IMG/VR virus record: IMGVR_UViG_3300021373_003510
Coordinates: 13,942 to 77,941 of that record
Direction: 5' to 3' (one strand)
Length of the DNA stretch: 64,000 nt
Origin: a virus
The notes under the pieces are model-generated. The model saw only the letters and a list, made by a program, of their open reading frames with translations. It was not told the DNA's origin and made no database searches. The position numbers and the translations under genes are program-made. This document shows positions 6,201-63,962 of this stretch, one piece after another. Position 1 is the first letter of the stretch. Each line of letters begins with the position of its first letter.

Positions 6201-9200
6201 TCCTTTAATAGCGCCTGTGATAGCAGATACAAATGTATGAGCTCCACCGCCGTTTGTAGATATACCTACATTACAACCAATTACATTTCCTTCGACTGAA
6301 GTTAATTTAACTGGCTTCTTAAAGAACGGATGATGTTCTTCAGGCACAGGGTGATTTGTTTGGTTATTATCAATTGCACAAGTAAATGTAATACCTCTTG
6401 GGGCAAATTCTATTTCATCCCCTACTCTCAATTTGTGCGTACCAATGTCTGCCGTAAACTCACCTGTAGCAGGATCATAAGAAGCAGTGCTTGGAGTAAA
6501 TCTTGTTACTGTTCTTGTTGGATATGAATGTTGAGTTGCATTACCATCCAAATCACAAGTATATGTTAAGCTCTCAGGAGCAATTAATATTTCTTGCCCA
6601 ACTTGTAAATCGTGAGAACCAATTGTAAGTACAGTTAAACCTGTTAAAGGATCATAAGTAGAATTTGAAGTTGAATAAGTTTTACCTGTGCTGTTTAGCA
6701 TATCAACAATTTTATCAAATGCTTCATCTGATCTGAACCCAGAAGCTTTATCATCAATTGCCTTAACATGTGTAATTGCATTATCGAGAGCAGATACAAA
6801 TGTATGAGCGTTTGATCCACCGTACCCAACAAACATTGTGATAGTTGTTGGAGTTGTAGATTCAATTGGACAAGGATGATTATAGAAAGGATGTCCTGGA
6901 TTTGGAACAGCATCGTTTGTAGGTCCGCTTCCTGTATCACAACTAAATGTAACACCATCCTCAAGGAACCTTACGTAATCACCAGCTTTTAATTCGTGAC
7001 GACCAATTGTAGCAGTAAAGATTCCTGTTTCAGGATCATATGTTGCATCAGTTGGAGTAAACGATTTTCCTTGGTTCTTCGCAGGAGTAATTGCATTTGC
7101 GACAGCGGATACAAATGTATGTGCTTGTTGACCTGTTGCTCCACCGTATCCTACGTTTAATGTAATAGTTGTATTTGATACTCCTATGATTGGACAAGGA
7201 ACTCCATTTGCGTATGGGTGATGAGCTTCAGGAACCGCGTGGTTTGTAGGACCTGACCCAGTATCACAACTGAATGTAATACCTTGCATCGCAAATACGA
7301 CAGTATCTCCGACTGCCAATGTATGAGCTCCAATAGTTGCTTCCATGATTCCTGTAGAAGGATCGTATGTTGCATCAGTAGGTTGGAAACCATTTTCAGT
7401 TTGAAGCGTATTAACTCTTCTCTTAAGTTCGTTTATTGCACCAGTTGTTTGTGTCAACTGATCGTTAATTACATTATCAGCTAACTCTGTACCTGCACGA
7501 TAAGCAAGTCCTGTCTGATATGCATTATAGTTTGAACCTGTTAAAATATCTCTTTCAACTGCAGGTAAGATGTACTCTGTAATATCTCTTCTACATTTTT
7601 TAGAATCATATCTGAAGTATGTTTCATCAAGATATCCATCAACGTAATCTTGTAAGAATCCTCTGTTTGCTTGTAATTGCTTTCTTGCGTTTCTCTTATT
7701 AGCAGGAATGTCTATACTATCAGACCACTTAATAGTATCACCTAATACTGAAACTGCACCTGTTGCAGCTTCTACGAATTGATAATCAAATGCAAATGGC
7801 TGTGTACCAACGTTGACTGTAATTTTACCAGGGACTGCACCCAATACTTCGACTGGAGTTTCATGAGCAGGATAACCTGGTTTTGGATAATAAGATCTTG
7901 TTTTATGACCATCTCTGCTACAAGTCATGGTGAAACCACCTGTCTTAAGCAATACATAATCGCCAACATTTAATCCATGACCTGACTGAATAGCATTTGG
8001 AGTAGCAGAAACAAATGTATGTACTTGTTGACCAGTATCTCCACCGTAACCAACATTCATTCTTATCTTATTTTTACTTACACCAATAATTGGGCATGGC
8101 TTTTCGTAATAAGGATGATGAGCTTCAGGAACAGCGTGATTTGTAGGACCTGAACCAGTATCGCAAGACCAAGTAATACTCTCAGGATTGAACCAAACAA
8201 AATCTCCTACTTCTAATTCATGCTTACCAATGTTTGCTTCCATAATTCCTGTAGCAGGATCATAAGTTCCATCAGTCATTTGATGAGATTTTGAATCTCC
8301 TATTGTAATAACAAAAAGACCAGTTACTGGATCATAGGTTGCATTACTAGGTGTATATTGTTTTCCTTTATTCTCAAGGATTTGTAAAACATTATCGTAA
8401 GCATCATCAAGTCGTTGTGAAGCAAGATAAGAATCACCATCTATCAATTCATTAGTCTGATCCTTTAATCTATTGTAAGCAGCAACTGTTTCGTTATTCT
8501 GATTTTCTATAACTGCCTTTCCTGCTTGCATATAATATGCTCGACCTGCAGTAAGTGAATTATAGTTAGTATCAAATAACATATCATTCTTAACGGCAGG
8601 AATAATATAATCAGAAACATCTCGACGACAAGATTTGCTATCATATGCAAAGAACTCATCGTTGTTTTCGATCCAATCAATTAGCTCTTCGGTAATGAAC
8701 TCTCGATTGTCTTGTAATAGCTTTCTAGCAGCTGTTCGAGGCACTGAAGTATCTTGCCATATAATCGGGTTAATGTTCTCTTCACCGTATTCTAAGACAT
8801 TTAGAAGCTCGGCAAAGGATGTATCAATCCTTGAATTAATTTCATTATTTGCTGAAATAAAGATTTCTTTTGATCTATCTCTTAGGTATTCGTTTGCACC
8901 TTTTGTTTCTTCAAGCTGTTCACCAGGAACAACATAACTGATTGGAGACCTATAAGTAATACCGGCAAGTCTTCCCCAATAGTTCGTATCAAGTGCAACG
9001 TCATAACCTGTACCATCAACTATGATACCTGAATCTCTTAAACATTTTTCTGAATCGTATTCTTGATAACCTAATCCACCATTTGCTGAATTGGCTGTTA
9101 GGTAATAAACCATATCATCAATAATTTCTTCGGCATTATTATCAATAGTATCGGCAAATGCAGTATTACCAATAATTGTTGCCGTTGTTCCTTTTGGAGC

Positions 9201-41875: not shown

Positions 41876-42325
41876 TTAACCTTTTAAGAATTCTTTCTTA
41901 GTATCAATCTTAATTTTTCTAGCCTTTTTGCTCTCAGGAATTATTCTTTCCAAAGCAACAGTTAAAAGGCCGTTTTTGAAGTTGGCTCCAATTACCTCAA
42001 TATCGTCTGCAAGAGTAAAACTTCTTGTAAACTTTTTGAAGGAAATTCCACGATGAACATAGTCACCGCCACCATTGAAGTAATCTCCTGCTTCATCCCA
42101 TGTGGAACGAACAGTTAATACATCTTCTTTTACTTCGATTTCTACATCATTAATATCAAGACCAGCTAAAGCAAGATCAATAAAGAACTTATCTTCGTCT
42201 CTTCTGATATTGTAAGGCGGAAAGCCTTGTGCTTGATGTTGATGAGGGAACTCCACCAATCTGTCAAAGACTCTATCGAATCCTACCGCAAATGGGTGTA
42301 GTTGATTTATATTTAATCCAGTCAT
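41876..42325 (-). CDS. hsp20: Small heat-shock protein Hsp20 (IbpA-like)
   Basis: GFDRVFDRL; FPPYNI; YVHRGIS; NGLLTVALERIIPE. Confidence 0.93.
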   Translation of the reverse strand: MTGLNINQLHPFAVGFDRVFDRLVEFPHQHQAQGFPPYNIRRDEDKFFIDLALAGLDINDVEIEVKEDVLTVRSTWDEAGDYFNGGGDYVHRGISFKKFTRSFTLADDIEVIGANFKNGLLTVALERIIPESKKARKIKIDTKKEFLKG

Positions 42326-45081: not shown

Positions 45082-45387
45082 TTACTCGACAACTTTATCA
45101 GCTAAAGTAGCACCATCAGCTTCTGATGTATCGACATCAACTGCCTGTTCCGCAACGGTTGAACCGTCAGGTTGAGGAGCCTTTTGTCTTAGGAATGCTT
45201 CGAGTTTATTTCTCAGCATACCTACACCAGCAAGCTCTTGCCCTTGAAACCCACCACGTTGTGATACTACATCAATAATCTGTAGGATCGTGGAGATGTC
45301 GCCAAGAGTAATATCTACTTCTTGCTGTTGCTGTTGACCACCCATTTGCATAGGTTGGCCTTGCATTGCTTCATTCATATTAATCAC
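45082..45387 (-). CDS. Hypothetical protein
   Basis: 101-aa ORF overlapping the gp45 stop; IIDVVSQRGGFQGQEL core. Confidence 0.7.
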   Translation of the reverse strand: MINMNEAMQGQPMQMGGQQQQQEVDITLGDISTILQIIDVVSQRGGFQGQELAGVGMLRNKLEAFLRQKAPQPDGSTVAEQAVDVDTSEADGATLADKVVE

Positions 45388-46046
45388 CTTTTATTATAAG
45401 TCGACTTTGAATCAATTGCCACATAATATGTGACGCCTTCTCCCTTAAATTCTGAGATACCTTTTGAACAAAGAGTAACCTCATAATCTAAAGGCATTAG
45501 TTTCAAGTTATCAGTTTTAATAATAATCTTGAACTCATCGTCAGTCTCCCCGATTTCAACGCCAAAGTCATCTGCGCCTTCGTTCGTACTGTCGATTGCT
45601 TTCAGATAACATTTGCCACTTTCGCCAACAAATGCGATCTCTGAAAATTGTAATACCCCTGCTGCCTTCAATACAGAAGACAAATCGCCGTTACTCACAT
45701 TGACAACTACATCAGCCGAAGGGATAGTGATATCCTTTTCAGGTGGAGTGTGGATCATTGAGAGATCAGCATAAACGTATTTGGTTCTACGCTTACCTTC
45801 CGAGATAATAAAGTATTTATCAAAAAACTCTACATCTGGATCATTATAAAGAGATAAAATTGATAAAAATCTCGATAGGTCATAAACACATGCATCTGAT
45901 GGAATTACATCAGGGATGTCCGCTATCGCGATCAATGTTTTCTCTGGAGTTATGGTCTTAAGAACTGAACCTTCTTTCAACAAGATTGACTTATTGATAG
46001 TGGTAAAGCTTTTAAGTACCGTCATAGTTTCGTTAGAAAATTTCAT
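45384..46046 (-). CDS. gp45: Sliding clamp gp45
   Basis: MKFSNETMTVLKSFTTINKSIL; YDLSRFLSILSL; position before gp44/62. Confidence 0.92.
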   Translation of the reverse strand: MKFSNETMTVLKSFTTINKSILLKEGSVLKTITPEKTLIAIADIPDVIPSDACVYDLSRFLSILSLYNDPDVEFFDKYFIISEGKRRTKYVYADLSMIHTPPEKDITIPSADVVVNVSNGDLSSVLKAAGVLQFSEIAFVGESGKCYLKAIDSTNEGADDFGVEIGETDDEFKIIIKTDNLKLMPLDYEVTLCSKGISEFKGEGVTYYVAIDSKSTYNKR

Positions 46047-46079: not shown

Positions 46080-46108
46080 ATTATATACCAATTACTTGGA
46101 CTTGTCAA
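46080..46108 (-). promoter_or_regulatory. Sigma70-type promoter (gp45)
   Basis: TTGACA-N17-TATAAT, exact. Confidence 0.85.
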
Positions 46109-46961
46109 TAGGATTGTAAGCTTTCTTTTTAGATTTATCATCTGCAGTTGCAGTTACTCCCAGTGACCCTAGGCTTCCCATGTCACCCTTAAAGATATAA
46201 GAACCAACATGGTTAATTTTCATCCAAGGACACATCGTTACTGATAATCCAGCTGCACGAGCCATTTTACAGAAAAAGTAATCTTCGGACAGATACCTTT
46301 TTGATTCTGGGTCAATCACACAATCAAAGAAGGCATGTATTTCTCGAGAACCATCAAATTGGTCGTTACGAATATGGTCAGGCAAATATGATAACTCAGG
46401 ATATGCTTCTCTGTACTTTTCTAAAGCATCTCTTGTAATTAACATAAATCCAGTTCCACCTTCGGAAACCTCAACAGGTTCTGAGAGCTTAAATTGTTTT
46501 ATTCCTTTTACAGGATTAAAGACAAAATCTGATATGTATTTTTCTAGGTCAAAAGGATTCTCTACACCAATACCTTGCTGTGCAGCAACAGAAACCTTTT
46601 CCCATGCAATTGTTTTCTTTGGATATGGACCACATACAATATCATACTTATCTGGGTCTGATATTTGTAATGCAACTAATGCTAATGCATCTCTTGGATC
46701 AAATCCAATATCCGAATCAATGAATAATAAATGAGAACAATCGGAACGAAGAAATTCGTCTACAATATAATTTCTTGCTCTTTGAACAAGACTCTCATTA
46801 AATAAAAAATAATATTTCATTGGAATCTTATGTGCTGCGCATAACATACTTAAATCATTTGTTGACTTTGTATATATGCCTGCGCATTGACCACCATACA
46901 TTGGTGTGCCAACGAATATTTTTTGCTTTGCTAAATCTTCTGTTTTTACTTCAAGCTTCAT
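46092..46961 (-). CDS. GT-A fold glycosyltransferase-like protein
   Basis: IFVGTPMYGG; ESLVQRARN; LLFIDSDIGF (DxD); GTGFMLI; LSEDYFFC; HVG. Confidence 0.78.
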   Translation of the reverse strand: MKLEVKTEDLAKQKIFVGTPMYGGQCAGIYTKSTNDLSMLCAAHKIPMKYYFLFNESLVQRARNYIVDEFLRSDCSHLLFIDSDIGFDPRDALALVALQISDPDKYDIVCGPYPKKTIAWEKVSVAAQQGIGVENPFDLEKYISDFVFNPVKGIKQFKLSEPVEVSEGGTGFMLITRDALEKYREAYPELSYLPDHIRNDQFDGSREIHAFFDCVIDPESKRYLSEDYFFCKMARAAGLSVTMCPWMKINHVGSYIFKGDMGSLGSLGVTATADDKSKKKAYNPIDKSK

Positions 46962-47619: not shown

Positions 47620-47648
47620 ATTATACAACAATACACCATGAATGTCAA
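47620..47648 (-). promoter_or_regulatory. Sigma70-type promoter (dexA-like gene)
   Basis: TTGACA-N17-TATAAT, exact. Confidence 0.85.
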
Positions 47649-47652
47649 TGGT

Positions 47653-48876
47653 TTATCCAAAGAATTCTTCGAGATTTGGAGTTGTGTCTTTTCCATTTGG
47701 ATCATACTCCATAAGTTGTTTTAAGTTATTTTGTCTTAAATAAGTTGTATCAGAAAGCTCAAGATCTCCATTCAAAAACTTACCAATTTCTAAATGCATA
47801 TCTCTTGATGTAGGTACAGGACAATTCTGAGCAATATGATTCATCTTCTTTAATCCATCAAGTAACTCAAAGTCTTCCGGGAATCCCATCATATGTAATG
47901 CTTCACGAATTGTTAAAGACCTTTCTTCAGTAGGATGAATTGTATCAACCATATTACGACCAATCACTGCATTCATATATTCACCAAAGACGTGTACTGA
48001 ACCATCCCATACACCTTTACCGTCTGCATACTTTTTAATTGCATGGTCAGAATACTTAATACCTTTTTCATGTCCTGTCTTATGGAACCATTCGTTAGCT
48101 TCTTTCATCCAACCTTTTTTATTTACATAATTCAGAGTTGTCTTAACGCCTTCTTCAATCATCAGTTCACGAATATCGCGATTTGTTTTTGTTTTAATAA
48201 ATGTATAGTAAGGTTCTTCAGGTACGTTCTTATTAATAATCAAATCTTGATGTAACGCATCTTCAGGAATCTCTTGAAGATATTCAGCAAAGTCCTTTCT
48301 TGGTCGATTATAATAATTCATAACTGGTGCAGATTCTGATTTCCAACCAATCGCAAATGATCTGTCTCTACCTTGAGGAACACCATGAAATCTTGTTGAT
48401 GTTTTAAATAATGTTAATGAGTATCCGCGTTCTTTACAAATTTCATATAACTTGTTTGCGACAGGACGACCTTTATTTGTATATAGTGCAGGAGCATTTT
48501 CAACAATGACTACCTTTGCTCCAAGAACATCAATACCATTCTCAAAGACCATATACATAAAGTCGTTCTTTGCACAACCTGGTCCTTTTGATTCTGTTGT
48601 CGTTCCTGTATTTAATTGCGATAAAGCAGCACAAGGTGGAGTACCTGTAACTACATCAACCTTTTTAATTTTAGGATTCTCTGAATCTAACAAGACATAA
48701 GGAATATCACGTCCCAATGTATTTTGCTGATAATTTACATAATGCCCATCGTTAGCTTCAAAACCACCAAAAGAATATATTGCTTCGGGTGGTTTACCAA
48801 ATGCTTTTTCTGCGCCTAATGCTTGTCCACCAATTAATGGAATTAGTGGTGCCCACGTTATTTCTTTTTTACTCAT
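47653..48876 (-). CDS. DNA cytosine-C5 methyltransferase-fold protein with atypical SAM-binding motifs
   Basis: Motif IV GTPPC, VI VENA, VIII QGRDR, IX RSLTIREALHMMGFPEDF; motif I reads LIPLIGG. Confidence 0.8.
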   Translation of the reverse strand: MSKKEITWAPLIPLIGGQALGAEKAFGKPPEAIYSFGGFEANDGHYVNYQQNTLGRDIPYVLLDSENPKIKKVDVVTGTPPCAALSQLNTGTTTESKGPGCAKNDFMYMVFENGIDVLGAKVVIVENAPALYTNKGRPVANKLYEICKERGYSLTLFKTSTRFHGVPQGRDRSFAIGWKSESAPVMNYYNRPRKDFAEYLQEIPEDALHQDLIINKNVPEEPYYTFIKTKTNRDIRELMIEEGVKTTLNYVNKKGWMKEANEWFHKTGHEKGIKYSDHAIKKYADGKGVWDGSVHVFGEYMNAVIGRNMVDTIHPTEERSLTIREALHMMGFPEDFELLDGLKKMNHIAQNCPVPTSRDMHLEIGKFLNGDLELSDTTYLRQNNLKQLMEYDPNGKDTTPNLEEFFG

Positions 48877-50132
48877 CCGAAAAAGTCCTCAAGTGTTGCA
48901 GCCGTTTTCTTTTCGTATTGTGATATATCAGTAGCGATATAATCTTTATCAATGGCTGTCATAATTTTGTTATTCAAAAAAGTACCATCATAATATTCAG
49001 GCTTACATATTAATTTACGCAAACCTCTTATTACTGATTCGTACTCATTTTCGTTATTTAATAACCTAGTCATTCTTTCTTTAAATTCAGTAGGAGTTTT
49101 AGGTCTTAAAAAATCTGGTATAGGTAGATGTTTTTGTTCATCATAAGTAGGATGTAAGAATGGTATTACACCAGCATGTACCATTTCAATATACTTTGAA
49201 GTTACCCAACCCTTTGCGATTGGAATAATAAAAGTAAACTTAACATTGTTCATTTTTGCCATTACATCATCAAGATGAATTGAACCTTTAAATCTTGCAT
49301 CGGTTGTTGTATCAGGATGATCCCACTTACCATAAATTTCAACATCTTCATGATCGTCCAATACCCATTCTTTTAATAAGTTATATCTTGAAGGCTTTGC
49401 TTCATTTAATATAACCATGAATGGTACTTTACGATTCAAATTAAACTGTTCTGAATGTTCGTAATTAACACAGAAGCAAGTTTCCATACCTGCATATGTT
49501 GAAGGTACTTTTCTTTCGTATCTGTTTTGATCTTCATAATTGCGAATACTGCTTACTTCGTATTCATAATCGTATTGACCCAAAGACACTGTTGGTAAAT
49601 GGAATATGTCTCTTGATTGATTCATTACATATCGTGGATCATTTACAATTTCAACATAAGGTGGTTGAACTTCATTTAACCAAATAGCAATAGGTGATGT
49701 ATAGTTCTTAGTCATATCAATTACAGATGCAGGTTTACCATCAGTGATACCTTCTTTCAAATGTTTCACTTGAGTAATTTTACCTGGGATAGTAACTGTT
49801 CCAACTTGACCTACCATCATAACTGTATTGTCTAATTGAAATCCTTTCTGATTAAAGTAATCTATAATATGTCGATAGAATCTATCATCGTCTTCATTCT
49901 TTACGCCTTTCCAAATATCAACTACATTATCATACGGAAACAACTCTAATACTTCAGACTCATTTAGAGTACTGAAATCCGAACGACCAATAATATAAAA
50001 GGTCTTATCTGGGTTATTGTTTGCTAATGATATTAGAACTGTAGATGGCTCGTTGTCTCCACCAATAGGAGAGAATCGAGTGCGTTTGAATTTGACCGAC
50101 TTACCGATCTTTGCGAATCCAATGTTTTTCAT
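48873..50132 (-). CDS. GT-B fold DNA glycosyltransferase-like protein (T4 beta-glucosyltransferase-like C-terminal domain)
   Basis: VEIYGKW; TSKYIEMVHAGVIPFLHPTYDEQ; neighbours gp42; clamp-like tail TLEDFFG. Confidence 0.6.
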   Translation of the reverse strand: MKNIGFAKIGKSVKFKRTRFSPIGGDNEPSTVLISLANNNPDKTFYIIGRSDFSTLNESEVLELFPYDNVVDIWKGVKNEDDDRFYRHIIDYFNQKGFQLDNTVMMVGQVGTVTIPGKITQVKHLKEGITDGKPASVIDMTKNYTSPIAIWLNEVQPPYVEIVNDPRYVMNQSRDIFHLPTVSLGQYDYEYEVSSIRNYEDQNRYERKVPSTYAGMETCFCVNYEHSEQFNLNRKVPFMVILNEAKPSRYNLLKEWVLDDHEDVEIYGKWDHPDTTTDARFKGSIHLDDVMAKMNNVKFTFIIPIAKGWVTSKYIEMVHAGVIPFLHPTYDEQKHLPIPDFLRPKTPTEFKERMTRLLNNENEYESVIRGLRKLICKPEYYDGTFLNNKIMTAIDKDYIATDISQYEKKTAATLEDFFG

Positions 50133-50156: not shown

Positions 50157-50591
50157 TTATTTATTAGATTCCACCACACGTTGTCTAAGCTCGGTTGAGC
50201 TAAACGAGTGCCTTCTTCTATTATAATGAACAGGACATAAACCTTTACCCGTATGTTCTTGATCTTTATATTCTTCACCGACAATTCTTATGTCAGGATT
50301 AATTGTTAAAATCATATCAACGATTTCTTGTTCCGTTGTAAAAGGTATAACCTCGTCAACGTACTTACAAGATGATACCTGTATGTATCTTTCAAAAGGT
50401 GTCTGAACAGGCTTGTTCTTTGCTTCAGGGCGGTCTACTGTTGGGTCAATCAATAATCCAACAATTAAATAATCACACATGGTCTTTGCTTCTTGTAACA
50501 TTACAATATGACCTGCGTGGAATAAATCAAAAGTAGAACATGTAAATCCTACTTTGAAATCTTGAGGTAGTTTCTTTCTATCTAAAAACAT
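50157..50591 (-). CDS. TagD-like cytidylyltransferase
   Basis: STFDLFHAGH; DYLIVGL; YVDEVIP; HSFSSTELR. Confidence 0.88.
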   Translation of the reverse strand: MFLDRKKLPQDFKVGFTCSTFDLFHAGHIVMLQEAKTMCDYLIVGLLIDPTVDRPEAKNKPVQTPFERYIQVSSCKYVDEVIPFTTEQEIVDMILTINPDIRIVGEEYKDQEHTGKGLCPVHYNRRRHSFSSTELRQRVVESNK

Positions 50592-50601
50592 ATTTTCTCC
50601 A

Positions 50602-51633
50602 TTACATAATCTCTGCCATTACATCGTTAACACATTGTATAATAAAATCTTTATCAGGGTGGTACTTATATACACGAATGATTTCTGATGCTACAGTAGT
50701 CCAAACTGATTTCTCATCAAGATTATTATATAAACATAATACCTTTAGAGATTCGTTTTGTAAATCTACAGGATAACGATTAATAATTAAACTTGCCACA
50801 AATTTAGATATATCTAATTGTGTATTTCCAAATGCTGACGGGATAGGATCAATTAAGACTAAATTACAGTCATTAAACAGCATGTTCTTAACACCAAAAT
50901 CTCCATGCGAAAAAGATGGAAACTGATGTGGCAAAGCAACAAGACGATCTACGATATCTTCAAAGGCAGCAATACCTGTTGGCTTAACATGGTTTACAAT
51001 TCTTCCAATATAATCTTCCCATACTAAATCCACGGGAGGATTAGCAATATGCTTCATAGATTCTAATGCATCTTGAATTAATCCAAAAGCCATGTAACGA
51101 TTTTCAATCAAATAGTCTTCTTGATGTTCAATGTACTCCATCGTAATTGTATTTCCAACAACACGATCTATCCTTGGAGTATTAAGTAAACCTTTTGTGT
51201 ATTCAAACCAAGCAGCTGCTTCATGCGCATTATCTGCAGTCTTATGAACAAGTCTACCATCGGTGTAAATATCAGAACCACTTAGTCCGCCTTCTAACTC
51301 TCTTATATCGGCCTCTAAAAATAACTCAGGTGTAATACCTTTGTCATCAATGTAATAGGCTCCAAGAGGTTTATCAAAACTCAGAAGTCCATATTTGACC
51401 TGATGCTTATCTAACCAATGTTCGATCTGAGCTCGGTATTTTTTATCAGCTTCTTCTCGAGTCTTACAAGAAATTGAACCACGAGCAGTGTAAATATCAA
51501 CAAGCCAACCAGAATCAAACAGCTTATTACATTTTTCAATTAAAGGAAGATTAGGTTTTGCTCTTTCCCAATCTCTGTTTGATGTAAATGCTAAAGTGTC
51601 ATCAAAGTCTAAAATGATTCTTTTATTGTACAT
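50602..51633 (-). CDS. Fusion of a HAD phosphatase (EcbF/BcbF-like) and an aminoglycoside/choline-kinase-like domain
   Basis: DFDDTL, YTARG, KP..YYIDDK; then GGLSGS, HGDFGVKN, LIDP. Confidence 0.78.
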   Translation of the reverse strand: MYNKRIILDFDDTLAFTSNRDWERAKPNLPLIEKCNKLFDSGWLVDIYTARGSISCKTREEADKKYRAQIEHWLDKHQVKYGLLSFDKPLGAYYIDDKGITPELFLEADIRELEGGLSGSDIYTDGRLVHKTADNAHEAAAWFEYTKGLLNTPRIDRVVGNTITMEYIEHQEDYLIENRYMAFGLIQDALESMKHIANPPVDLVWEDYIGRIVNHVKPTGIAAFEDIVDRLVALPHQFPSFSHGDFGVKNMLFNDCNLVLIDPIPSAFGNTQLDISKFVASLIINRYPVDLQNESLKVLCLYNNLDEKSVWTTVASEIIRVYKYHPDKDFIIQCVNDVMAEIM

Positions 51634-51876: not shown

Positions 51877-51905
51877 ATTATACCATAGTTACGATCATTT
51901 GTCAA
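51877..51905 (-). promoter_or_regulatory. Sigma70-type promoter (kinase/cytidylyltransferase/GT/MTase operon)
   Basis: TTGACA-N17-TATAAT, exact. Confidence 0.85.
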
Positions 51906-52653
51906 TAGAAAAAATTGACTCAACATCGTAGTGAGGTACTTCTATTTCCTCAACCCAGTTAACTTGTTTATTATAAGGTCTCCATTTATCTCTAACAAAG
52001 TAATCCTCATAACATATAATTTCACCTGGGTATATACTATATAGCCATTTCATCCGTTCGTAATTATCACGAATTTGATTAATGCAGTTTGGAACAGTGA
52101 CTACTCCCATTCCACCTGTTAACATTGGATCATTAGGATCAACTTCAACAATATGTTTTTCGTCTTTACCTAAAAATCCTAAATGAGTTTCTCTTACAAA
52201 CTCATCAGTCATTTTTTTAGCCTGAACTTTGAATCCTGTTTTAGAAAAGTCTCCCCATCTTCTTACAGCAACCCAACTCTTACATGTGGCTTCAAAATCT
52301 CTACGATACAAATAATAAATCTTATCTACTGATTTTAGTATTTCTTTAATCATATAGTCTTCGCGTACTTGCCAAGGCATAATCTTAAAGCAAATTTCAA
52401 CATCAGGTTTACGAAGTTCAGTCATTAAGTTGGCATCACTTTGAATTAGATCGAGTATTTCATACTGCATAATCCCATATTCATTTTGAAGTTTATACCT
52501 AGCAGGAATTGCTCCTACTTTATTTGCTTTCTCATGACTAAACGCTTCACCACCATAAGGTAGTCCGTATTCTTCAGCCTTTTGTAATGTAAAAGTAGTA
52601 CTGCCTGTTCTATAATTACATATGACTGCTACTTTTTTAATGTTTTGTTCCAC
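51895..52653 (-). CDS. PAPS-dependent sulfotransferase-like protein
   Basis: 5'-PSB loop NYRTGSTTF; FKIMP; 3'-PB-like YLYRRDFEATCKSW; CYED. Confidence 0.65.
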   Translation of the reverse strand: MEQNIKKVAVICNYRTGSTTFTLQKAEEYGLPYGGEAFSHEKANKVGAIPARYKLQNEYGIMQYEILDLIQSDANLMTELRKPDVEICFKIMPWQVREDYMIKEILKSVDKIYYLYRRDFEATCKSWVAVRRWGDFSKTGFKVQAKKMTDEFVRETHLGFLGKDEKHIVEVDPNDPMLTGGMGVVTVPNCINQIRDNYERMKWLYSIYPGEIICYEDYFVRDKWRPYNKQVNWVEEIEVPHYDVESIFSIDK

Positions 52654-53089
52654 TCATAAACTCCGTTTCAACACCTGCTTCAGTAAACATACGTTGTGAC
52701 TTGTCAAATGATTCTAACCATTTTTGCGGAATATCATCAGCCGACATAACAATTCTATTTATGCCCACCTGAATAATTCCTTTTGCACAGTCATGACAAA
52801 CTGGTAAACCCCAAACATATAATGTAGAATCCTTTAGAGATATTCCATTAAATGTAGCATTATATATGCAATTCATTTCAGCATGAACAACAAGATCATA
52901 TTTAATAGTTCTATCTATGTATCTTTCAGGACTATCTTCGATTCCTTTTGGAAATCCATTATATCCAGTTGCTAGGATGCGACGGTCTGAGTTAACAGCC
53001 ACCGCACCGATTTGTTTTGAAGGGTCTTTACTCCAAGTTGAGATTTCTTGTGCGACTCTTAAGAATCGTTTATCCCACTTTTCTTGCAT
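52637..53089 (-). CDS. cd: dCMP deaminase
   Basis: WSKDPS; TGYNGFP; HAEMN; PVCHDCAKGIIQ. Confidence 0.93.
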   Translation of the reverse strand: MQEKWDKRFLRVAQEISTWSKDPSKQIGAVAVNSDRRILATGYNGFPKGIEDSPERYIDRTIKYDLVVHAEMNCIYNATFNGISLKDSTLYVWGLPVCHDCAKGIIQVGINRIVMSADDIPQKWLESFDKSQRMFTEAGVETEFMSGTKH

Positions 53090-53744
53090 CTATCAATTCC
53101 TCAACGAAGTTAAAATGTCTTTCATATACATGGAAATTAGAAGCAGTCCAAATTAAATTACCAACTCGTATACCAAGATCATGCGCAAGGTTGGTTTGAA
53201 CATATCTTGCCCAAGCATAATCATTGTTATAACCAAACACTGCATCGTTTGAACGCATTAGGTAATGAGAATCAAGTTCACCATCTCGAACATAAAAAGT
53301 ATTCGCATAGGTACACATAAAGTCATTCATACCGTCTCTTGTGAAATCAACATGCATGCTTGGTCGATTATAAATCATAGTTGCTCTGCGAGAGTTTGGA
53401 TTGTTTTTCAATTCGCGAAGAACATGTTGGTATTGATTACCGTTCTCTTCAGAGTATATACACCAACCATAATTAGAATTGATCTCACCTTCGGTTGAAG
53501 CAATGTCTTTCCAAATTTTTGGAGTTTCACCAGGAATATCATTTACATTCAACGATTGAGACTTATACCATTGTAACTCACGGCCGATATACTCATATGC
53601 AGGTTTGCGAACAATATAATCTTCGTCAGCAAGAAATGTTGCGCCGATGATTTCAATTGTCTTTGCACCTGTTCTATCAATAATGAAATCTTCATCAAGA
53701 TATTTGTCAGTGATAAGTTGTCTTACTAGGTTGATCGTTAGCAT
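53070..53744 (-). CDS. gp42: dCMP hydroxymethyltransferase (thymidylate synthase fold)
   Basis: Close to T4 gp42 as recalled: DRTGAKTIEIIGATF, DIPGETPKIW, GEINSNYGW, DFMCT, MRSNDAVFGYNND (Asp at the dCMP-specificity position). Confidence 0.9.
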   Translation of the reverse strand: MLTINLVRQLITDKYLDEDFIIDRTGAKTIEIIGATFLADEDYIVRKPAYEYIGRELQWYKSQSLNVNDIPGETPKIWKDIASTEGEINSNYGWCIYSEENGNQYQHVLRELKNNPNSRRATMIYNRPSMHVDFTRDGMNDFMCTYANTFYVRDGELDSHYLMRSNDAVFGYNNDYAWARYVQTNLAHDLGIRVGNLIWTASNFHVYERHFNFVEELIDARKVG

Positions 53745-54370: not shown

Positions 54371-54399
54371 ATTATAACAAAATTGACACTGCATGTCAA
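54371..54399 (-). promoter_or_regulatory. Sigma70-type promoter of the gp42 operon, containing a TTGACA-N5-TGTCAA palindrome
   Basis: TTGACA-N17-TATAAT, exact; inverted repeat at 54383-54399. Confidence 0.85.
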
Positions 54400-55680: not shown

Positions 55681-56094
55681 TTATTCTCCTTTTAATTTTG
55701 GTAGGATACCATGATTACCTTCATGAGATGGAGCCGTCCATCCTTCAGGTTTCATAAGATCAGGTAATCCTAACGGGTTCGGCCTTCCTTCCTTTACACC
55801 AGGTTCTTTGGCCATATTTGCTTCGAGAACAGAGTCCCAAGCTTTATAAGGGTCGACTCCAAAGGCATCGAGAGTACCGATTGCCACTACACAAAGGTCA
55901 ACTAAACCATCAACGATTTCTTCGGAGTCGATAACTTTTTGAGCATTTCTTGTTTCAGTTAATTCCTCTTCCAAGAAATCTATTCTAAAGCGCAAGAATG
56001 CCTTTAATTGATTTAAGTCTGCGTTTTTAATCCAATCATGCGTTTGGTATTTGGATTGCATTTCATTAATGTCTTTTACCCAATCTTTACTCAT
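55681..56094 (-). CDS. MazG/HisE-superfamily NTP pyrophosphohydrolase; probable start at MSKDW
   Basis: FLEEELTE...EIVDGLVDLCVVAIG; ANMAK; KPEGW. Confidence 0.82.
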   Translation of the reverse strand: MSKDWVKDINEMQSKYQTHDWIKNADLNQLKAFLRFRIDFLEEELTETRNAQKVIDSEEIVDGLVDLCVVAIGTLDAFGVDPYKAWDSVLEANMAKEPGVKEGRPNPLGLPDLMKPEGWTAPSHEGNHGILPKLKGE

Positions 56095-56395
56095 CAGGAT
56101 ATCCTTGTGTAATATAAACGCCAATCATACCAATTTCGCCTTCAGTTAACATGCCTGCTGTTGGCCACATCATTGCAGATTGTGGTCCTACAACTTCTTT
56201 ATTTTTATATGCCAACAATTTAGAAATAATTTCATCAGCAGTTTGTCCTTGAAGTTTAGGTCCTAAACCACCTTGACCTTGAGGTCCGTGGCATGCGGCA
56301 CAAGTATTCATTGTTTGACGAATACTCGCAAACCTATCTTCTGCTACTGCATTTGTTGATAATACCAATGTCAATGCGATAATAAACTTGTTCAT
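56087..56395 (-). CDS. Class I c-type cytochrome (c553-like) with a signal peptide
   Basis: CAACHG haem motif; GPKLQGQ; distal Met in SAMMW. Confidence 0.9.
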   Translation of the reverse strand: MNKFIIALTLVLSTNAVAEDRFASIRQTMNTCAACHGPQGQGGLGPKLQGQTADEIISKLLAYKNKEVVGPQSAMMWPTAGMLTEGEIGMIGVYITQGYPDE

Positions 56396-56951: not shown

Positions 56952-59504
56952 TTAACTGAAGAAATCTTCAATTGTATTTACCTTTTCTGCTGACCATCCA
57001 ACCGCATCTAGGATCGACTGAATCGGATTCAAGAATACTTTATCAAACTGTAGCTCATAGTCAATATATTCATGAAGACCAAGTTGTTTAGGTAATAGGC
57101 CAGGAACCGATATAACATTTTCTCTTATCGGATTTGGCACTTTAAGATAGAGAAATTTGACTTTGTCTCCACCTTGTATTGTCTCAAACTTTTTATCAAG
57201 TCCTTTCTCTTTAAGGAAATGATTATACATAATTGCACCACGAACATGCATAGGACAACCTTTTCTATATAAGGAAGTCTTGTCTTGATACTTTTTAATA
57301 TTATCAGTGCCTGAAGTTTTTGCGATAGCAACAGGATCAAGCTTGCGAAACTCTTCGCGGAAGTCTTGAATAAAGTCTTGAGTTGTCTTTTCATCGGTAT
57401 TCATAATAACCTCAAAACATTCCTTAAGCTTTTCTCGACAGACCTCAGGAGTCGAAGATCTTACTGATTCCAAACCTGTAACTGATATCTTAGGAGTATC
57501 ATAATGAACTCCTTCAGAATTCAATGTATTTAGGATATACCTTTTCTTAGCAACAAAGATACCGCGGTGAGCAATCTTTTCACGTTTCATCACCATTGCA
57601 TTACGATAAGTACCTAAATCAGCGGCAAGCTTTTCGTAACCGTCTTCAATGATTTGCTCAATTTTTGTTGAGCATACTCTATCAAGGAACTCTTCACCTT
57701 TACTTTTATCAATATCAGTTGTACCAAATACTTCAGTAATCAGAGGACCGAAGTCAACATAGATAGAGTCAGTATCAATATAAATGATATAGTCAGTATC
57801 ATCAGTTCCAAGAATCTTGTTCAAATAATCGTTTACAGATTTTTGAGCATAACGAATAGATAACTGACCACTTGTTGTAATTGCTTCGGCCATTTCGTTA
57901 ATATAGTATAAGAAGTAGATGTTTGCCGTTGCTCCATACAAACTGTTCATAGCAATCTTAATTGACATTTGCGAGTTGTGAAGCTGATTGATTTCACGTT
58001 TCAGTCTTTTTAGTTCAGTACTATCTGTTTCAATTTCAAACTGCTGTTCAGCTGCAATCATTTGCTTTTTGATAACAGAACGGTTATTATAGTATTCATC
58101 AATGATTTCAGGAATGATTCCAAGTTTCTTGTTTGAGAAACAAACACCGTTAGCGGCAACCGATACATCTTTACGATCATTCTGATATTCACCTTTTAGA
58201 ACCATATCCTGAGTTACGTATTCACGATCGTCAGGCATATATGTTTCAGGTGACATATTATATTGTAGCATCAAATGTGGATATAGAGAGTTAAGGTCAA
58301 AAGATACAACCCAAGGATGCATTCCAACTTTAGGATCTTTTACATAACCACCTACGAGATCTCCTGCTCGCATTCCTGGGCCACCTTTAAGTGGAGGAAC
58401 GATCTTGTCTTTAATCAACCTACGATAAATGGTTGATTCCCAAATGCCAACAGTTCCAAAGGCGTCTCCGTAATTAACTCCACCATCATAAGCAACGGTC
58501 ATAACCAAAGCAAGCAATCCTGTTTCTTCTTCAAGTCGAGCAATCAACTGAGTATCTTTCAAATTATAGTCAAGATACAGTTGTGGATTTTCATCATATA
58601 AACCTGTAAGAGAACCATATTCTGAATAGTCAATCTTTTTCTCACCAAGAACAACATAAGCAATATGATCCAACCTATATGATTCTTGAGGACCGTACTT
58701 ATAACCAAATTTCTTGAAAGCATCCATATAGTCAATAACAGCAATACCCATAAGTGAATATGTTGAGTTGACTTTACCAAATACTTCTCGACTTTGCTTT
58801 TTAATTGATTTGTGTGGAGATAGACGTTTAGCAGTTTCTTCTCCAAGCAAACGAATAATCCTCGTGACAATATACATTATGTCAAAGTACTCAACGTTCC
58901 AACCTGTTACAATATCAGGATAGTCGGTTGTCCATAATTTAACAAAGTACTGAAGTAGCTGGACTTCAGAATCAAACTTGACATATTGAATCTTGTCTTG
59001 AGGAATGTCCGTTACCGTTTGTGTCTTGTCGTAATCTTTTTGGCCAAGCAGATAGTAAATATCAGATCTTGAACTATGATAAGCAATTGATGTAATAGGG
59101 TTGTCTGCTTCGTCAATATTAGCAAAGCCATCTCTGATGTCAACCTCAATATCAAACGAAACAATATTCACATGACTTACATCGTATGAAATCTTTTCAG
59201 GATATTCTTCTTGTATGAATTGCGTAATATAATTTGTTGAGCCAAAGATCTTCATACCGTGAACACCTTTGTATTCCTCAATAAAGTTTTTGGCTTCGCG
59301 CATATCGCCGAACTTGTGTGGAGATAATGGTAGGTTACCATCTGTTAAAGACTTATAACCTTCTTCTCCTGCTTTCGGCGTATGAACATATAGAGTTGGT
59401 TGAAACGGTACACGATACGAGAAACGCTTTCCGTTTTCGTAACCACGATGTAGGATATTATTTCCGTACCGCTCAACAGATGTATAGAATTTTGTCAATG
59501 CCAT
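56952..59504 (-). CDS. gp43: Family B DNA polymerase gp43
   Basis: ExoI FDIEV; TGWNVEYFD; SFDLNSLYP; KIAMNSLYG; YIDTDS; KKRY. Confidence 0.97.
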   Translation of the reverse strand: MALTKFYTSVERYGNNILHRGYENGKRFSYRVPFQPTLYVHTPKAGEEGYKSLTDGNLPLSPHKFGDMREAKNFIEEYKGVHGMKIFGSTNYITQFIQEEYPEKISYDVSHVNIVSFDIEVDIRDGFANIDEADNPITSIAYHSSRSDIYYLLGQKDYDKTQTVTDIPQDKIQYVKFDSEVQLLQYFVKLWTTDYPDIVTGWNVEYFDIMYIVTRIIRLLGEETAKRLSPHKSIKKQSREVFGKVNSTYSLMGIAVIDYMDAFKKFGYKYGPQESYRLDHIAYVVLGEKKIDYSEYGSLTGLYDENPQLYLDYNLKDTQLIARLEEETGLLALVMTVAYDGGVNYGDAFGTVGIWESTIYRRLIKDKIVPPLKGGPGMRAGDLVGGYVKDPKVGMHPWVVSFDLNSLYPHLMLQYNMSPETYMPDDREYVTQDMVLKGEYQNDRKDVSVAANGVCFSNKKLGIIPEIIDEYYNNRSVIKKQMIAAEQQFEIETDSTELKRLKREINQLHNSQMSIKIAMNSLYGATANIYFLYYINEMAEAITTSGQLSIRYAQKSVNDYLNKILGTDDTDYIIYIDTDSIYVDFGPLITEVFGTTDIDKSKGEEFLDRVCSTKIEQIIEDGYEKLAADLGTYRNAMVMKREKIAHRGIFVAKKRYILNTLNSEGVHYDTPKISVTGLESVRSSTPEVCREKLKECFEVIMNTDEKTTQDFIQDFREEFRKLDPVAIAKTSGTDNIKKYQDKTSLYRKGCPMHVRGAIMYNHFLKEKGLDKKFETIQGGDKVKFLYLKVPNPIRENVISVPGLLPKQLGLHEYIDYELQFDKVFLNPIQSILDAVGWSAEKVNTIEDFFS

Positions 59505-62339: not shown

Positions 62340-62912
62340 TTAGTTAGCAGCTGCTTCTTTTTCAGCTGTCTCTTTAGGTAGTTGTTGTTGTAAATGTTTA
62401 AGGTAAGCCATAGCAGCCTGGCGCTGTTTGGTAATTTTACCTTTCTTCTTTAATGCTCGATCCCATTTAAGTCGAGACACTTTATCTTTATACACCACTC
62501 CGTATAGGTGGTCAAATTCATGCAAGAAACATCTTGCGGTATAACCTTCAAAAGTACCTGTCTTTTCATTCAGTTCTTCGTCGTACCACTTTGCTTCCAC
62601 TTGACTTGGTCTTGCCATTCTAATAAACATATCAGGATAGCTTAAGCAACCTTCAATATCAAGTTCAGTTTCTTCCGATACACTAATCACTTCAGGATTG
62701 ATAAACATCATCGAGTTTTCTTTATTCTCTCCAATAATAAAAACCTTATGATCCAATCCTACTTGACACGCTGAGAGACCGAGACCTCTTTGCGACTCCA
62801 TTAGAGTAACCATTTGTTCTTTTAATTCTACTGGATCAAATCCTGGATCCTTAAGATTGACGTCTGCCAACTCTCTATGCATAATTGGATCGGAGTGATG
62901 TACTAATTTCAT
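62340..62912 (-). CDS. def: Peptide deformylase
   Basis: GLGLSACQVG; EGCLS; HEFDH. Confidence 0.94.
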   Translation of the reverse strand: MKLVHHSDPIMHRELADVNLKDPGFDPVELKEQMVTLMESQRGLGLSACQVGLDHKVFIIGENKENSMMFINPEVISVSEETELDIEGCLSYPDMFIRMARPSQVEAKWYDEELNEKTGTFEGYTARCFLHEFDHLYGVVYKDKVSRLKWDRALKKKGKITKQRQAAMAYLKHLQQQLPKETAEKEAAAN

Positions 62913-63337
62913 AACTTGCCTTCTTCTCTCATTTTAGCACGAATCTTTGTGGCTGATATTTCATGAACATCTTTACCAAGATCATGCTCTGTAAATGTAT
63001 AACCGACACCGCGACCATAACTAATGTCAACAATGTTCGGTACTGCCATAATCATATACTCTCTGCCTTCTTCATACCCTGCATCACCGAGTCCTTTCTT
63101 GATTCCGTCAATAACAGCAATCTCTCCAAAAGGATTATCGGTTTGAGCAACAGTACGACCAGCACCTGCATCTCCTTCGATACCGTATACTTCACGTACC
63201 ATTATAACAACTTGTCCTGTCAATGTCAAGGCCTTTTCAAATAATTTTGTGTGGCCTTCATGCCAAGGTTGCCATCTTCCCAACATTTGAACTGTTGGTT
63301 TCTTAAAATCGAATTGATTCTCCATGTCAAAATTCAT
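62909..63337 (-). CDS. HxGH nucleotidyltransferase (cytidyltransferase-like)
   Basis: LGRWQPWHEGH; ISATKIR. Confidence 0.82.
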   Translation of the reverse strand: MNFDMENQFDFKKPTVQMLGRWQPWHEGHTKLFEKALTLTGQVVIMVREVYGIEGDAGAGRTVAQTDNPFGEIAVIDGIKKGLGDAGYEEGREYMIMAVPNIVDISYGRGVGYTFTEHDLGKDVHEISATKIRAKMREEGKL

Positions 63338-63549
63338 TATTCTTTAACTCCAAACTTGATGTAATTGTACCAAAGTCTTTCATGTCCATAATACAATACA
63401 AATTTAATAACTAGGTCCGCCAAAAAGACGGCTCCCACAGCCTTCTGAGGTAGGCCAAAATATAACGCGATAAGAGCTGTAGTACAGGATGCAATAATTC
63501 TCCATGTAATAGCTTTACCTAAATGTCTTAACTTTGTGACTTCTGCCAT
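63337..63549 (-). CDS. DUF2061-like small membrane protein
   Basis: RHLGKAITWRIIA...LYYGHERLW. Confidence 0.78.
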   Translation of the reverse strand: MAEVTKLRHLGKAITWRIIASCTTALIALYFGLPQKAVGAVFLADLVIKFVLYYGHERLWYNYIKFGVKE

Positions 63550-63962
63550 TTTGCGAACTCCTTTTCAATGATAGGAGCAAGGACCAAGTCTGTTCTATCT
63601 TTCCATTCTGTTATAATATAATCTACTTCAGTAGGCATTTCGAAGATCTTATTCGTATCTTCAAATCTACCTGCTTTAATTGTGTCCATCCAAATTGTAA
63701 AATCGGCATCAAAGCCATCTCTTGCTTTTTGGAAAGGACAAACGAAATCTGTTATAGCAATTTTACCTGCCATAGATACTCCGTCTGAAAGATGTCTCAT
63801 ACGATTTGCTTGTCTCATTCTACCTTCGTCGGAGAAATCCCAATCGTCGTATGTTTCTCTTACTGTGTCTGCGTTAATCCAAACACCTTCTAACTGCTCT
63901 GCGAGCGGTTGTGCTAACGTACTTTTGCCACTACCTGGCAATCCAAATACTAATACTTTCAT
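63528..63962 (-). CDS. cysC: Adenylylsulfate (APS) kinase-like protein
   Basis: GLPGSGKST; NADTVR..DWDFSDEGRMRQA; DFVCP; FEMP. Confidence 0.78.
   Translation of the reverse strand: MKVLVFGLPGSGKSTLAQPLAEQLEGVWINADTVRETYDDWDFSDEGRMRQANRMRHLSDGVSMAGKIAITDFVCPFQKARDGFDADFTIWMDTIKAGRFEDTNKIFEMPTEVDYIITEWKDRTDLVLAPIIEKEFAKWQKSQS

Follow-up and report, generated by a model that had tools for sequence, protein, structure and literature searches.

A 64,000-nucleotide stretch of the IMG/VR virus record IMGVR_UViG_3300021373_003510 (positions 13,942 to 77,941; hereafter the window), which comes from a marine T4-like myovirus, carries at 47653..48876 on the minus strand a genuine 407-aa open reading frame (ORF) whose product has the fold of a DNA cytosine C5-methyltransferase (C5-MTase) but lacks the signature by which such enzymes bind S-adenosylmethionine (SAM). 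We refer to it as the MT-like gene, and to its relatives, the 'PLIGG/QNVP' subfamily of the C5-MTase fold, as the MT-like family. We found no description of a C5-MT-like subfamily linked to gp42, the phage dCMP hydroxymethylase, in the literature searched, and the family is apparently a large, undescribed virus family tied to genes that make 5-hydroxymethylcytosine (hmC) and genes that add sugars. We consider it an even call that in this large marine-phage family, with copepods as secondary carriers, the C5-MTase fold has been turned into a SAM-independent enzyme for an undescribed reaction on DNA. That reaction could be an exchange of nucleophiles at the 5-CH2-O of hmC or glycosyl-hmC via a Cys-C6 adduct, the cytosine counterpart of what amino-acid:DNA transferases do, or else direct post-replicative hydroxymethylation of cytosine in DNA.

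Fold and motif pattern of the MT-like family

Pfam PF00145 (C-5 cytosine DNA methylase) matches residues 15-344 of the MT-like protein (E 1.5e-22; 80.9 bits against a gathering threshold of 22), and the NCBIfam dcm model TIGR00675 scores it at 59.1 against a cut-off of 100.65. Public annotation labels family proteins 'site-specific DNA-cytosine methylase', and a search of the ESM Atlas with the MT-like protein returned solely 'DNA methylase' virus clusters. The AlphaFold2 model, built from an input alignment of 44 relatives, has a mean predicted local distance difference test score (pLDDT) of 93.1 and a predicted template-modelling score (pTM) of 0.91, and is soft only in the active-site loop (residues 81-100) and over the final 20 residues. 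The top structural match is M.HaeIII (1dct; Z 25.3, 2.8 Å over 274 residues); M.HhaI matches with Z 24.2 (model residues 4-371 onto chain residues 10-325), DNMT1 and ZMET2 are further best matches, and Foldseek assigns the C5-MTase fold with a probability of 1.0. As modelled, the protein keeps the entire two-domain C5-MTase fold, its N-terminal Rossmann half included.

A full-library search returned 1483 representatives at E <=1e-3 and 292 at E <=1e-30, each standing for one 50%-identity cluster; residues were counted in 136 family sequences (135 full-length representatives, down to ~30% identity). An initial annotation made without database searches (the sequence-only reading) had described motifs IV, VI, VIII and IX as intact, and all of them, encoded like the gene on the minus strand, are found. 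Motif IV, T79-P-P-C82-A-A-L-S86 (48619..48642), supplies the catalytic Cys, with C82 and L85 in 136/136 sequences and S86 in 134/136; motif VI, E126-N-A-P129 (48490..48501), has E126 in 136/136, N127 and A128 in 134/136 each and P129 in 131/136; motif VIII, H164-G-V-P-Q-G-R-D-R172 (48361..48387), has R170 and R172 in 136/136, H164 in 133/136 and Q168 in 132/136; and motif IX is present as HP..ER.LTIREA..MMGFP.DF. The catalytic residues are invariant. The likeness to M.HaeIII and M.HhaI therefore takes in the two-domain fold, Pro-Cys, Glu-Asn, Gln-x-Arg-x-Arg and motif IX, while the PCQxFS, ENV and GN(A/S)V of canonical C5-MTases read PC(A/S)(G/A)LS, ENAP and QNVP in the family.

The departures lie in the cofactor motifs. 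Motif I, which is F-x-G-x-G-G in M.HaeIII and M.HhaI, is (I/V/Q/M)-P-L-I-G-G in the family and L11-I-P-L-I-G-G17 in the window (48826..48846, minus), with P13 in 124/136, L14 in 130/136, G16 in 132/136 and G17 in 131/136 sequences. In a BLASTP alignment with the canonical C5-MTase from Streptococcus phage phiD12, DLFSGVGG pairs with PLIPLIGG, and the structural alignment to M.HhaI gives the same register; since the two agree, the adenine-stacking Phe corresponds to Ile12 (I, V, Q or M across the family) and the first Gly of the loop to Leu14, the residue found there in 130/136. The sequence-only reading of motif I as IPLIGG is thereby borne out, as is its reading of motif X as QN: Q350-N-C-P353 (47818..47829, minus) replaces the canonical GN(A/S)V, HMMER aligns AQ350N351CP with the 'GNAVPV' of M.HaeIII, and Q350, N351 and P353 are present in 133/136, 130/136 and 132/136 sequences, respectively. 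The further statement that the acidic residue of motif II appears absent holds for the family but not to the letter for the window protein, in which E40, three residues past 'IYSFGG', is paired by BLASTP with the canonical motif II Glu; just 13/136 family sequences have it. HMMER alignments to M.HaeIII and 3g7u pick other registers, in which the Glu falls on Ser35 or on a variable column, so that three alignments yield three registers and a conserved Glu in none. Profile-profile comparison with a canonical phage MTase aligned motifs IV-X at a probability of 99% and left the N-terminal 70 residues, and with them motifs I-III, unaligned, which is why the motif II register is ambiguous. In the model, strand beta-2 (33-35) ends at Ser35, and D/E43 is conserved two to three residues past the candidate Glu positions. 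As far as these alignments can be read, no motif II acid is conserved in the family, nor is the aromatic residue that follows it in M.HaeIII and M.HhaI.

Other near-invariant positions are S/T35 (124/136), F39 (111/136), N42 (125/136) and D/E43 (126/136). Along the protein, conservation in the N-terminal segment is about equal to that in the catalytic core, and it is lowest in the target-recognition region, as in ordinary MTases. Because P-L-I-G-G, N-D and Q-N-V-P are common to ~135 representatives, the altered motifs are a family signature and not decay. The sequence-only reading had the SAM-binding motifs as lost; the canonical contacts are indeed replaced family-wide, but 'lost' does not suit positions whose new residues are near-invariant, and with P13, L14, N42, D43 and Q350 all in that class, 'remodelled pocket' describes them better. 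By this pattern of residues, the canonical SAM contacts appear swapped for a different conserved set, with the covalent-catalysis set untouched. The features of a SAM-dependent C5-MTase that the protein shows are the two-domain fold and catalytic motifs IV, VI and VIII; those it lacks are FxGxGG in motif I, the motif II acid and Gly-Asn in motif X, and with these three defining cofactor features missing we do not class it with the SAM-dependent methylases.

Linkage to hmC synthesis and glycosyltransferases

The sequence-only reading had placed the MT-like gene in an hmC phage, and the cytosine metabolism encoded by the window agrees. Its gp42 orthologue (53070..53744, minus) matches the dCMP hydroxymethylase of T4 (PDB 1b49) at E 4e-73 and carries RSND...NDY and DFMCT, so that, in E. 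coli ThyA numbering, D169 is kept and N177D and L143D are present. Published criteria assign N177D with D169 kept to 5hm-dCMP synthases and D169N to 5-hydroxy-dCMP synthases (PMC13326640); a 5-hydroxy-dCMP synthase of the RB69 type is ruled out here by the retained D169. The window further encodes a dCMP deaminase (52637..53089, minus; PF00383 E 1.7e-19; phrog_174), a MazG-like nucleotide pyrophosphohydrolase that is a candidate dCTPase (55681..56124, minus; PF01503 E 8.4e-9; phrog_671 E 2e-21) and a dUTPase-fold protein. That this phage makes hmC DNA is well supported.

The association with gp42 extends across the family. We compared 311 viral-contig loci from four clades (close relatives, A, B and C) whose ORFs were clustered by single linkage; read-through ORFs merged the clusters of the MT-like gene and of its GT-B-type glycosyltransferase neighbour, which is why a hidden Markov model (HMM) of the family was used to identify the MT-like genes separately. 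The commonest neighbour across the 311 loci is a ThyA homologue, and in all four clades this cluster always has Asp at N177 with D169 kept, and almost always Asp at L143. Among loci with full flanks (at least 8 kb on both sides of the MT-like gene), an N177D ThyA lies within 10 kb in 6/6 close relatives and 11/11 clade-B loci, in 13/34 loci of clade A and in 12/36 of clade C. When whole records were searched for A and C loci without a nearby ThyA, 18/36 had a PF00303 match, 16 of these 18 being of the Asp type and, among the ten most complete records, sometimes standing beside a normal thymidylate synthase (TS). Completeness of metagenomic records is an estimate; by that estimate, all 10 records at least 45% complete that lack a nearby ThyA have a PF00303 match elsewhere, with an N177D ThyA in each of the 10, and the records with no match are fragments at most 38% complete, with the one exception of a 27.7-kb contig. 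The base rate of a gp42-like gene in cultured-phage records is 790/50,697 (1.6%). With four divergent clades linked to an N177D ThyA, homologues are tied to gp42, as the sequence-only reading anticipated, and are not common in phages that lack it.

Cultured phages with an MT-like protein are only Pseudoalteromonas phage vB_Psh_XG4 (48.6% identity) and the S-TIM5 cyanophage group (~31%). The cassette of vB_Psh_XG4 is as in the window, with gp42, a HAD-like protein, an NTP-transferase/kinase fusion, a GT-B, a second glycosyltransferase and the MT-like gene. The ThyA of S-TIM54 (L001:6105-6947), 2 kb from the MT-like gene, is TS-like (E 3.6e-31 to thymidylate synthases); N177 is replaced by Asp (GVPLDMF) and L143 by Cys (HCPPCH), and judged by these residues the enzyme is probably dCMP-specific. 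Tet_JBP (PF12851) was found in 0/26 family-bearing records, 10 of them at least 90% complete, and in none of the control genomes either, so that this search had no positive control. On a 97-kb viral contig with an MT-like gene, the ThyA-family match (L319; G019:C1:10715-11413) contains five in-frame TGA codons, which could reflect stop-codon recoding.

Glycosyltransferases are the other recurrent partners. The gene directly upstream of the MT-like gene, on the same strand, encodes a GT-B in 75/76 close relatives, a T4-type alpha-glucosyltransferase (AGT) in 40/72 clade-B loci (PF11440 E 1.6e-56; phrog_2888), and an epimerase, AGT or GT-B in clade A; a GT-B homologue holds the same position at the distant locus L200 (25% identity, E 1e-41) and directly upstream of the MT-like gene in the 27.7-kb contig without ThyA (E 1e-41). 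A GT-A-like protein, encoded in the window at 46092-46961 (289 aa; phrog_1574 E 5e-56, with a weak Glyco_transf_21 match), is often encoded near the MT-like gene, at 65/81, 36/72 and 20/80 loci of three clades, and this second transferase may act on the same DNA as the MT-like enzyme. Further genes in the jumbo-phage clusters of clade A encode an inositol-1-phosphate-synthase-like protein, an FkbM methyltransferase, a GT4 enzyme and an epimerase. Across the family, then, the sugar genes vary while gp42 and the MT-like gene are constant. The clade-A cluster is conserved in L126:3606-15926, L128, L130 and L133 (jumbo-phage contigs of 290-390 kb); its order is gp42-like, dUTPase-fold, phrog_17781, inositol-1-phosphate-synthase-like, FkbM methyltransferase, an unassigned gene, HMUDK_hel, MT-like, epimerase, thymidine kinase, DHH phosphoesterase and dCMP deaminase. 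Clusters of this type probably make an unusual glycan or cyclitol on hmC.

The HMUDK_hel protein of this cluster provides a hint about the substrate. A protein with PF18723, the 5-hmdU DNA kinase helical domain, is encoded just upstream of the MT-like gene at 10 clade-A loci (32-56 bits; cut-off 25), and the 889-aa protein P0359 is a fusion of a PF18723 protein with an MT-like domain. Neither the neighbours nor the fusion show a clear Walker A motif; they have a G-C-E motif in common. Adjacency and fusion are confined to clade A, and the window's operon has no PF18723 protein. To our knowledge, this domain family occurs only in enzymes that act on 5-hydroxymethyl-pyrimidines in DNA, and the fusion together with the repeated adjacency points to chemistry on a 5-hydroxymethyl-pyrimidine in DNA.

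In the window, the MT-like gene ends an operon headed by a perfect TTGACA-17-TATAAT promoter-like site (51877..51905, minus; 12/12 match). The site is followed by a 68-aa peptide, a HAD-phosphatase and kinase-like fusion for donor synthesis (50602..51633, minus; TIGR01689 E 3.7e-11; phrog_1238; weak Bud32-like match in the kinase part), an HxGH nucleotidyltransferase of the RfaE domain II / TagD-like type (50157..50591, minus; PF01467 E 4e-15, with TIGR02199 and TIGR01518 matches under their cut-offs), the GT-B-like transferase (48873..50132, minus) and the MT-like gene, and immediately downstream of the MT-like stop codon comes the next site of this kind (47620-47648). As the sequence-only reading had it, the last two genes of the operon overlap, the GT-B stop (TGA) and the MT-like start (ATG) sharing letters in ATGA (GGATGAGT). 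Four 12/12 intergenic coding-strand sites fall within 9.5 kb (54371-54399, 51877-51905, 47620-47648 and 46080-46108, minus); the total of promoter-like sites in the window is not above that of shuffled sequence.

The products of the two overlapping genes also end alike. The C-terminal tail of the MT-like protein, NLEEFFG (47656..47676, minus), is a clamp-binding-like peptide retained in most of its close relatives, and the pattern [LIVMT][DEQT][DE]F[FLMIYV]x0-2 ends just three ORFs of the window, namely the gp43 DNA polymerase (TIEDFFS; 56952..59504, minus; PF00136, PF03104), the GT-B (TLEDFFG) and the MT-like protein. The T4 proteins gp43, gp33 and gp55 attach to the gp45 clamp by their C-terminal tails. 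By analogy with these tails, and given the tail shared with gp43, both modification enzymes would ride the clamp on nascent DNA, their presumed docking partner being the gp45 sliding clamp encoded at 45384..46046 (minus; PF09116 E 1.7e-14). The replication genes of the window also include gp46/47-like proteins, the gp44/62 clamp loader and RegA.

Proposed reaction and alternatives

The reading we favour, at a confidence just short of even, is that of a clamp-tethered enzyme which forms a covalent Cys-C6 adduct with hmC in nascent DNA and works without SAM methyl transfer; the proposal of the sequence-only reading, an hmC-activating transferase or editor, is supported in part. We favour it on the grounds of invariant catalytic residues, replaced SAM contacts, linkage of the gene to gp42 and glycosyltransferases, and the shared operon and tail; from these we infer clamp binding, hmC as substrate, the absence of SAM use and the exchange chemistry. 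The enzyme would be expressed early from one operon with the donor-synthesis module and the GT-B, to whose gene its own would be translationally coupled, and its NLEEFFG tail would dock on the gp45 clamp like the polymerase and GT-B tails. A cytosine-type base would then be flipped out of new DNA, where every C would be hmC, and Cys82 would attack C6, aided by Glu126 and Arg170/Arg172. The C5 substituent would be labilised via an exocyclic methylene, the route taken by thymidylate synthase and by amino-acid:DNA transferases from phages with 5-hydroxymethyluracil (hmU), and would be exchanged or derivatised by a partner held in the rebuilt polar pocket (S35, N42, D43, Q350, N351). Since nascent C is expected to be all hmC, the Cys, Glu and Arg-x-Arg are kept and the enzyme shares expression and tail type with the GT-B, hmC or O-substituted hmC would be the substrate; with CH2OH or CH2-O-X already at C5, the C6 adduct could not take a methyl group. 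Labilisation of C5-CH2-O through a C6 adduct is also seen as a SAM-free side reaction of C5-MTases.

A genuine SAM-dependent C5-MTase with drifted cofactor motifs, which would methylate cytosines that escape hmC replacement or host DNA and so leave no C unmodified, we consider unlikely. The protein does pass the PF00145 threshold with its catalytic and DNA-binding motifs all intact, and the GG of motif I, the conserved Asp/Glu at 43 and the motif X Asn remain; yet throughout the family other conserved residues stand in for motif I's aromatic residue and first Gly, motif II's Glu and motif X's Gly, the N-terminal SAM-binding region is unalignable with the canonical enzyme, and the score falls under the NCBIfam dcm cut-off. 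A target-recognition region that is the least conserved part is what ordinary MTases have, copepod relatives carry CXXC and zinc-finger domains, typical readers of unmethylated CpG, S-TIM5-type phages may have 5-methylcytosine (5mC) DNA, and the want of a universal cofactor-synthesis partner suits a ubiquitous donor. Against this, gp42, the MazG-like pyrophosphohydrolase and the dUTPase-fold enzyme should leave little unmodified C, and the gene is strongly conserved and linked specifically to gp42 and glycosyltransferases rather than spread across phages.

Rather improbable in our view is a cytosine C5-hydroxymethylase acting at the DNA level with a non-SAM one-carbon donor such as 5,10-methylene-tetrahydrofolate in the rebuilt pocket, any unmodified C in nascent DNA being turned into hmC and then decorated by the neighbouring glycosyltransferase. 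Beside such an enzyme gp42 would be superfluous, although it is nearly always there; the MT-like protein showed no signature of folate binding, and the adjacency and fusion to HMUDK_hel would be left unexplained. It would account for the retention of all residues that make C5 of unsubstituted cytosine nucleophilic, for the polar nature of the residues newly invariant in the pocket (Ser, Asn, Asp, Gln, Asn) and for the linkage to glycosyltransferases of several unrelated families, which implies a function independent of the sugar; the clamp-type tail fits proofreading behind the fork, and Liutkeviciute et al. are said to have found in 2009 that C5-MTases can add formaldehyde to C in vitro. The GT-B/MT-like pair in a record without ThyA is also as expected for a self-sufficient module, although this lone record may be incomplete. 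C5-MTases without SAM catalyse dehydroxymethylation and deamination in vitro, and the MT-like enzyme could live by such a side reaction, stripping hydroxymethyl groups at selected sites or deaminating C or hmC, or serve as a covalent reader that reversibly traps flipped hmC for the glycosyltransferase. If L14 and Q350 just fill the SAM site, no cosubstrate is needed, matching the lack of a universal partner, and the pairing with glycosyltransferases is tight. We nonetheless hold this very improbable, since dehydroxymethylating or deaminating its own DNA brings the phage no obvious benefit, the strongly conserved polar pocket residues suggest a ligand, and T4 glucosyltransferases flip the base themselves.

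Several observations weigh against the clamp-tethered, SAM-independent hmC enzyme that we favour. The loss of SAM binding is deduced from sequence patterns. The 27.7-kb record is rated 87% complete and has the GT-B/MT-like pair with no ThyA homologue, the copepod homologues presumably occur without gp42, and the more TS-like ThyA of S-TIM5-type phages might make 5mC rather than hmC. In addition, the 790 gp42-bearing cultured phages manage without the MT-like enzyme, and no partner gene other than gp42 is universal across the family, which fits a common metabolite as cosubstrate, SAM being one.

Comparison with known enzymes and copepod homologues

A further difference from bacterial and phage C5-MTases is that the MT-like family is tied to gp42 and glycosyltransferases and not to restriction enzymes or TET. 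Among phage enzymes, the closest precedent for a changed cofactor pocket is CmoX of Synechococcus phage S-B43 (PDB 8yf3), a DNA cytosine C5-carboxymethyltransferase that depends on carboxy-S-adenosylmethionine (Cx-SAM), keeps the adenosine contacts F25, E47, F48 and D69 and has Arg350 in place of the motif X Asn, which shows that motif X changes can retune the cofactor of the C5-MTase fold in phages (PMC12783734). CmoX resembles the MT-like family in being a phage C5-MTase fold with a similar xPPC motif IV (structural match Z 22.7), an altered cofactor pocket and a non-methyl product that serves as a hypermodification handle. It differs in that the family keeps the motif X Asn (N351) and changes the contacts that CmoX retains, and sequence similarity to the MT-like protein is weak (E 0.011). 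A cofactor switch of the CmoX type is ruled out by the retained N351 and the absent F, E and F contacts, and no CmoA-like gene stood out among the annotated neighbours of MT-like genes.

The C5-MTs associated with TET in phages are SAM-dependent GpC methylases that provide 5mC to the adjacent TET (Burke et al. 2021, PMC8256090). They are likewise phage-borne, sit in cytosine hypermodification clusters with glycosyltransferases and come in many cases from marine metaviromes (PMC8256090), whereas in MT-like phages the hydroxymethyl group comes before replication, from the gp42-type enzyme. For the exchange chemistry, the nearest parallel is the amino-acid:DNA transferases, known as clade 2 aGPT-Pplase, in which an active-site Cys attacks C6 and, helped by a Glu, expels the activated 5-CH2-O, the exocyclic methylene then being captured by a nucleophile; their substrate is phosphorylated hmU (PMC8989533). 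The likeness to these enzymes and to 5-HMUDK lies in the proposed mechanism, as a mechanistic inference only, and in the HMUDK_hel proteins adjacent or fused in one MT-like clade. The aGPT-Pplase has a helix-hairpin-helix glycosylase-like fold and acts on the hmU base, whereas the MT-like protein is a Rossmann MTase that would act on hmC; beside the MT-like gene of the window we recognised no P-loop kinase.

A domain with the PLIGG/CPCAGLS/GENAPGL/QNVP pattern also occurs in the copepod transcripts P0307 and P0342 (EukProt Neocalanus flemingeri) and in marine eukaryote-like sequences of 600-1460 aa (P0166, P0178, P0205, P0218). Compared with P0305, a 422-aa form with cluster members on contigs as long as ~108 kb, the eukaryote-like domain has ~55-57% identity, and it is fused to long disordered tails and C2H2-like fingers, with a CXXC zinc finger (PF02008) in P0205. 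From these sequences it looks as if the phage domain had been transferred into an animal lineage, the copepods. An identification of the long eukaryote-like forms as the dinoflagellate retrotransposon DNMTs of de Mendoza et al. (2018) was not established, the named members being copepod transcripts.

If the enzyme is non-methylating, the few known activities on bases within DNA would be joined by a new one, and abundant marine T4-like and jumbo phages would have an unrecognised cytosine hypermodification or a new route to hmC. This would bear on how such phages evade restriction and other DNA-targeting defences and on how their DNA behaves in sequencing and metagenomics, and the enzyme could have value as a tool, since epigenome mapping has a demand for enzymes that derivatise 5hmC site-specifically. 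What role the domain plays in an animal is a question posed by the copepod homologues. For annotation, the signature PLIGG, ND and QNVP together with the linkage to gp42 and glycosyltransferases is a simple rule that separates the family from true methylases.

Elsewhere in the window, a 252-aa protein (51895-52653) that overlaps the dCMP deaminase gene has no Pfam, PHROGs or NCBIfam match. An APS-kinase-like (adenosine 5'-phosphosulfate kinase-like) gene (63528-63962; PF01583 E 9e-10), a small HxGH nucleotidyltransferase (62909-63337; PF01467 E 5e-4), a peptide deformylase (62340-62912; PF01327 E 1.2e-36) and an Hsp20 (41876-42325; PF00011 E 1.2e-15) are also encoded, and a single 3753-aa ORF at 276-11537 (minus) is followed by ORFs of 1794 and 1052 aa.

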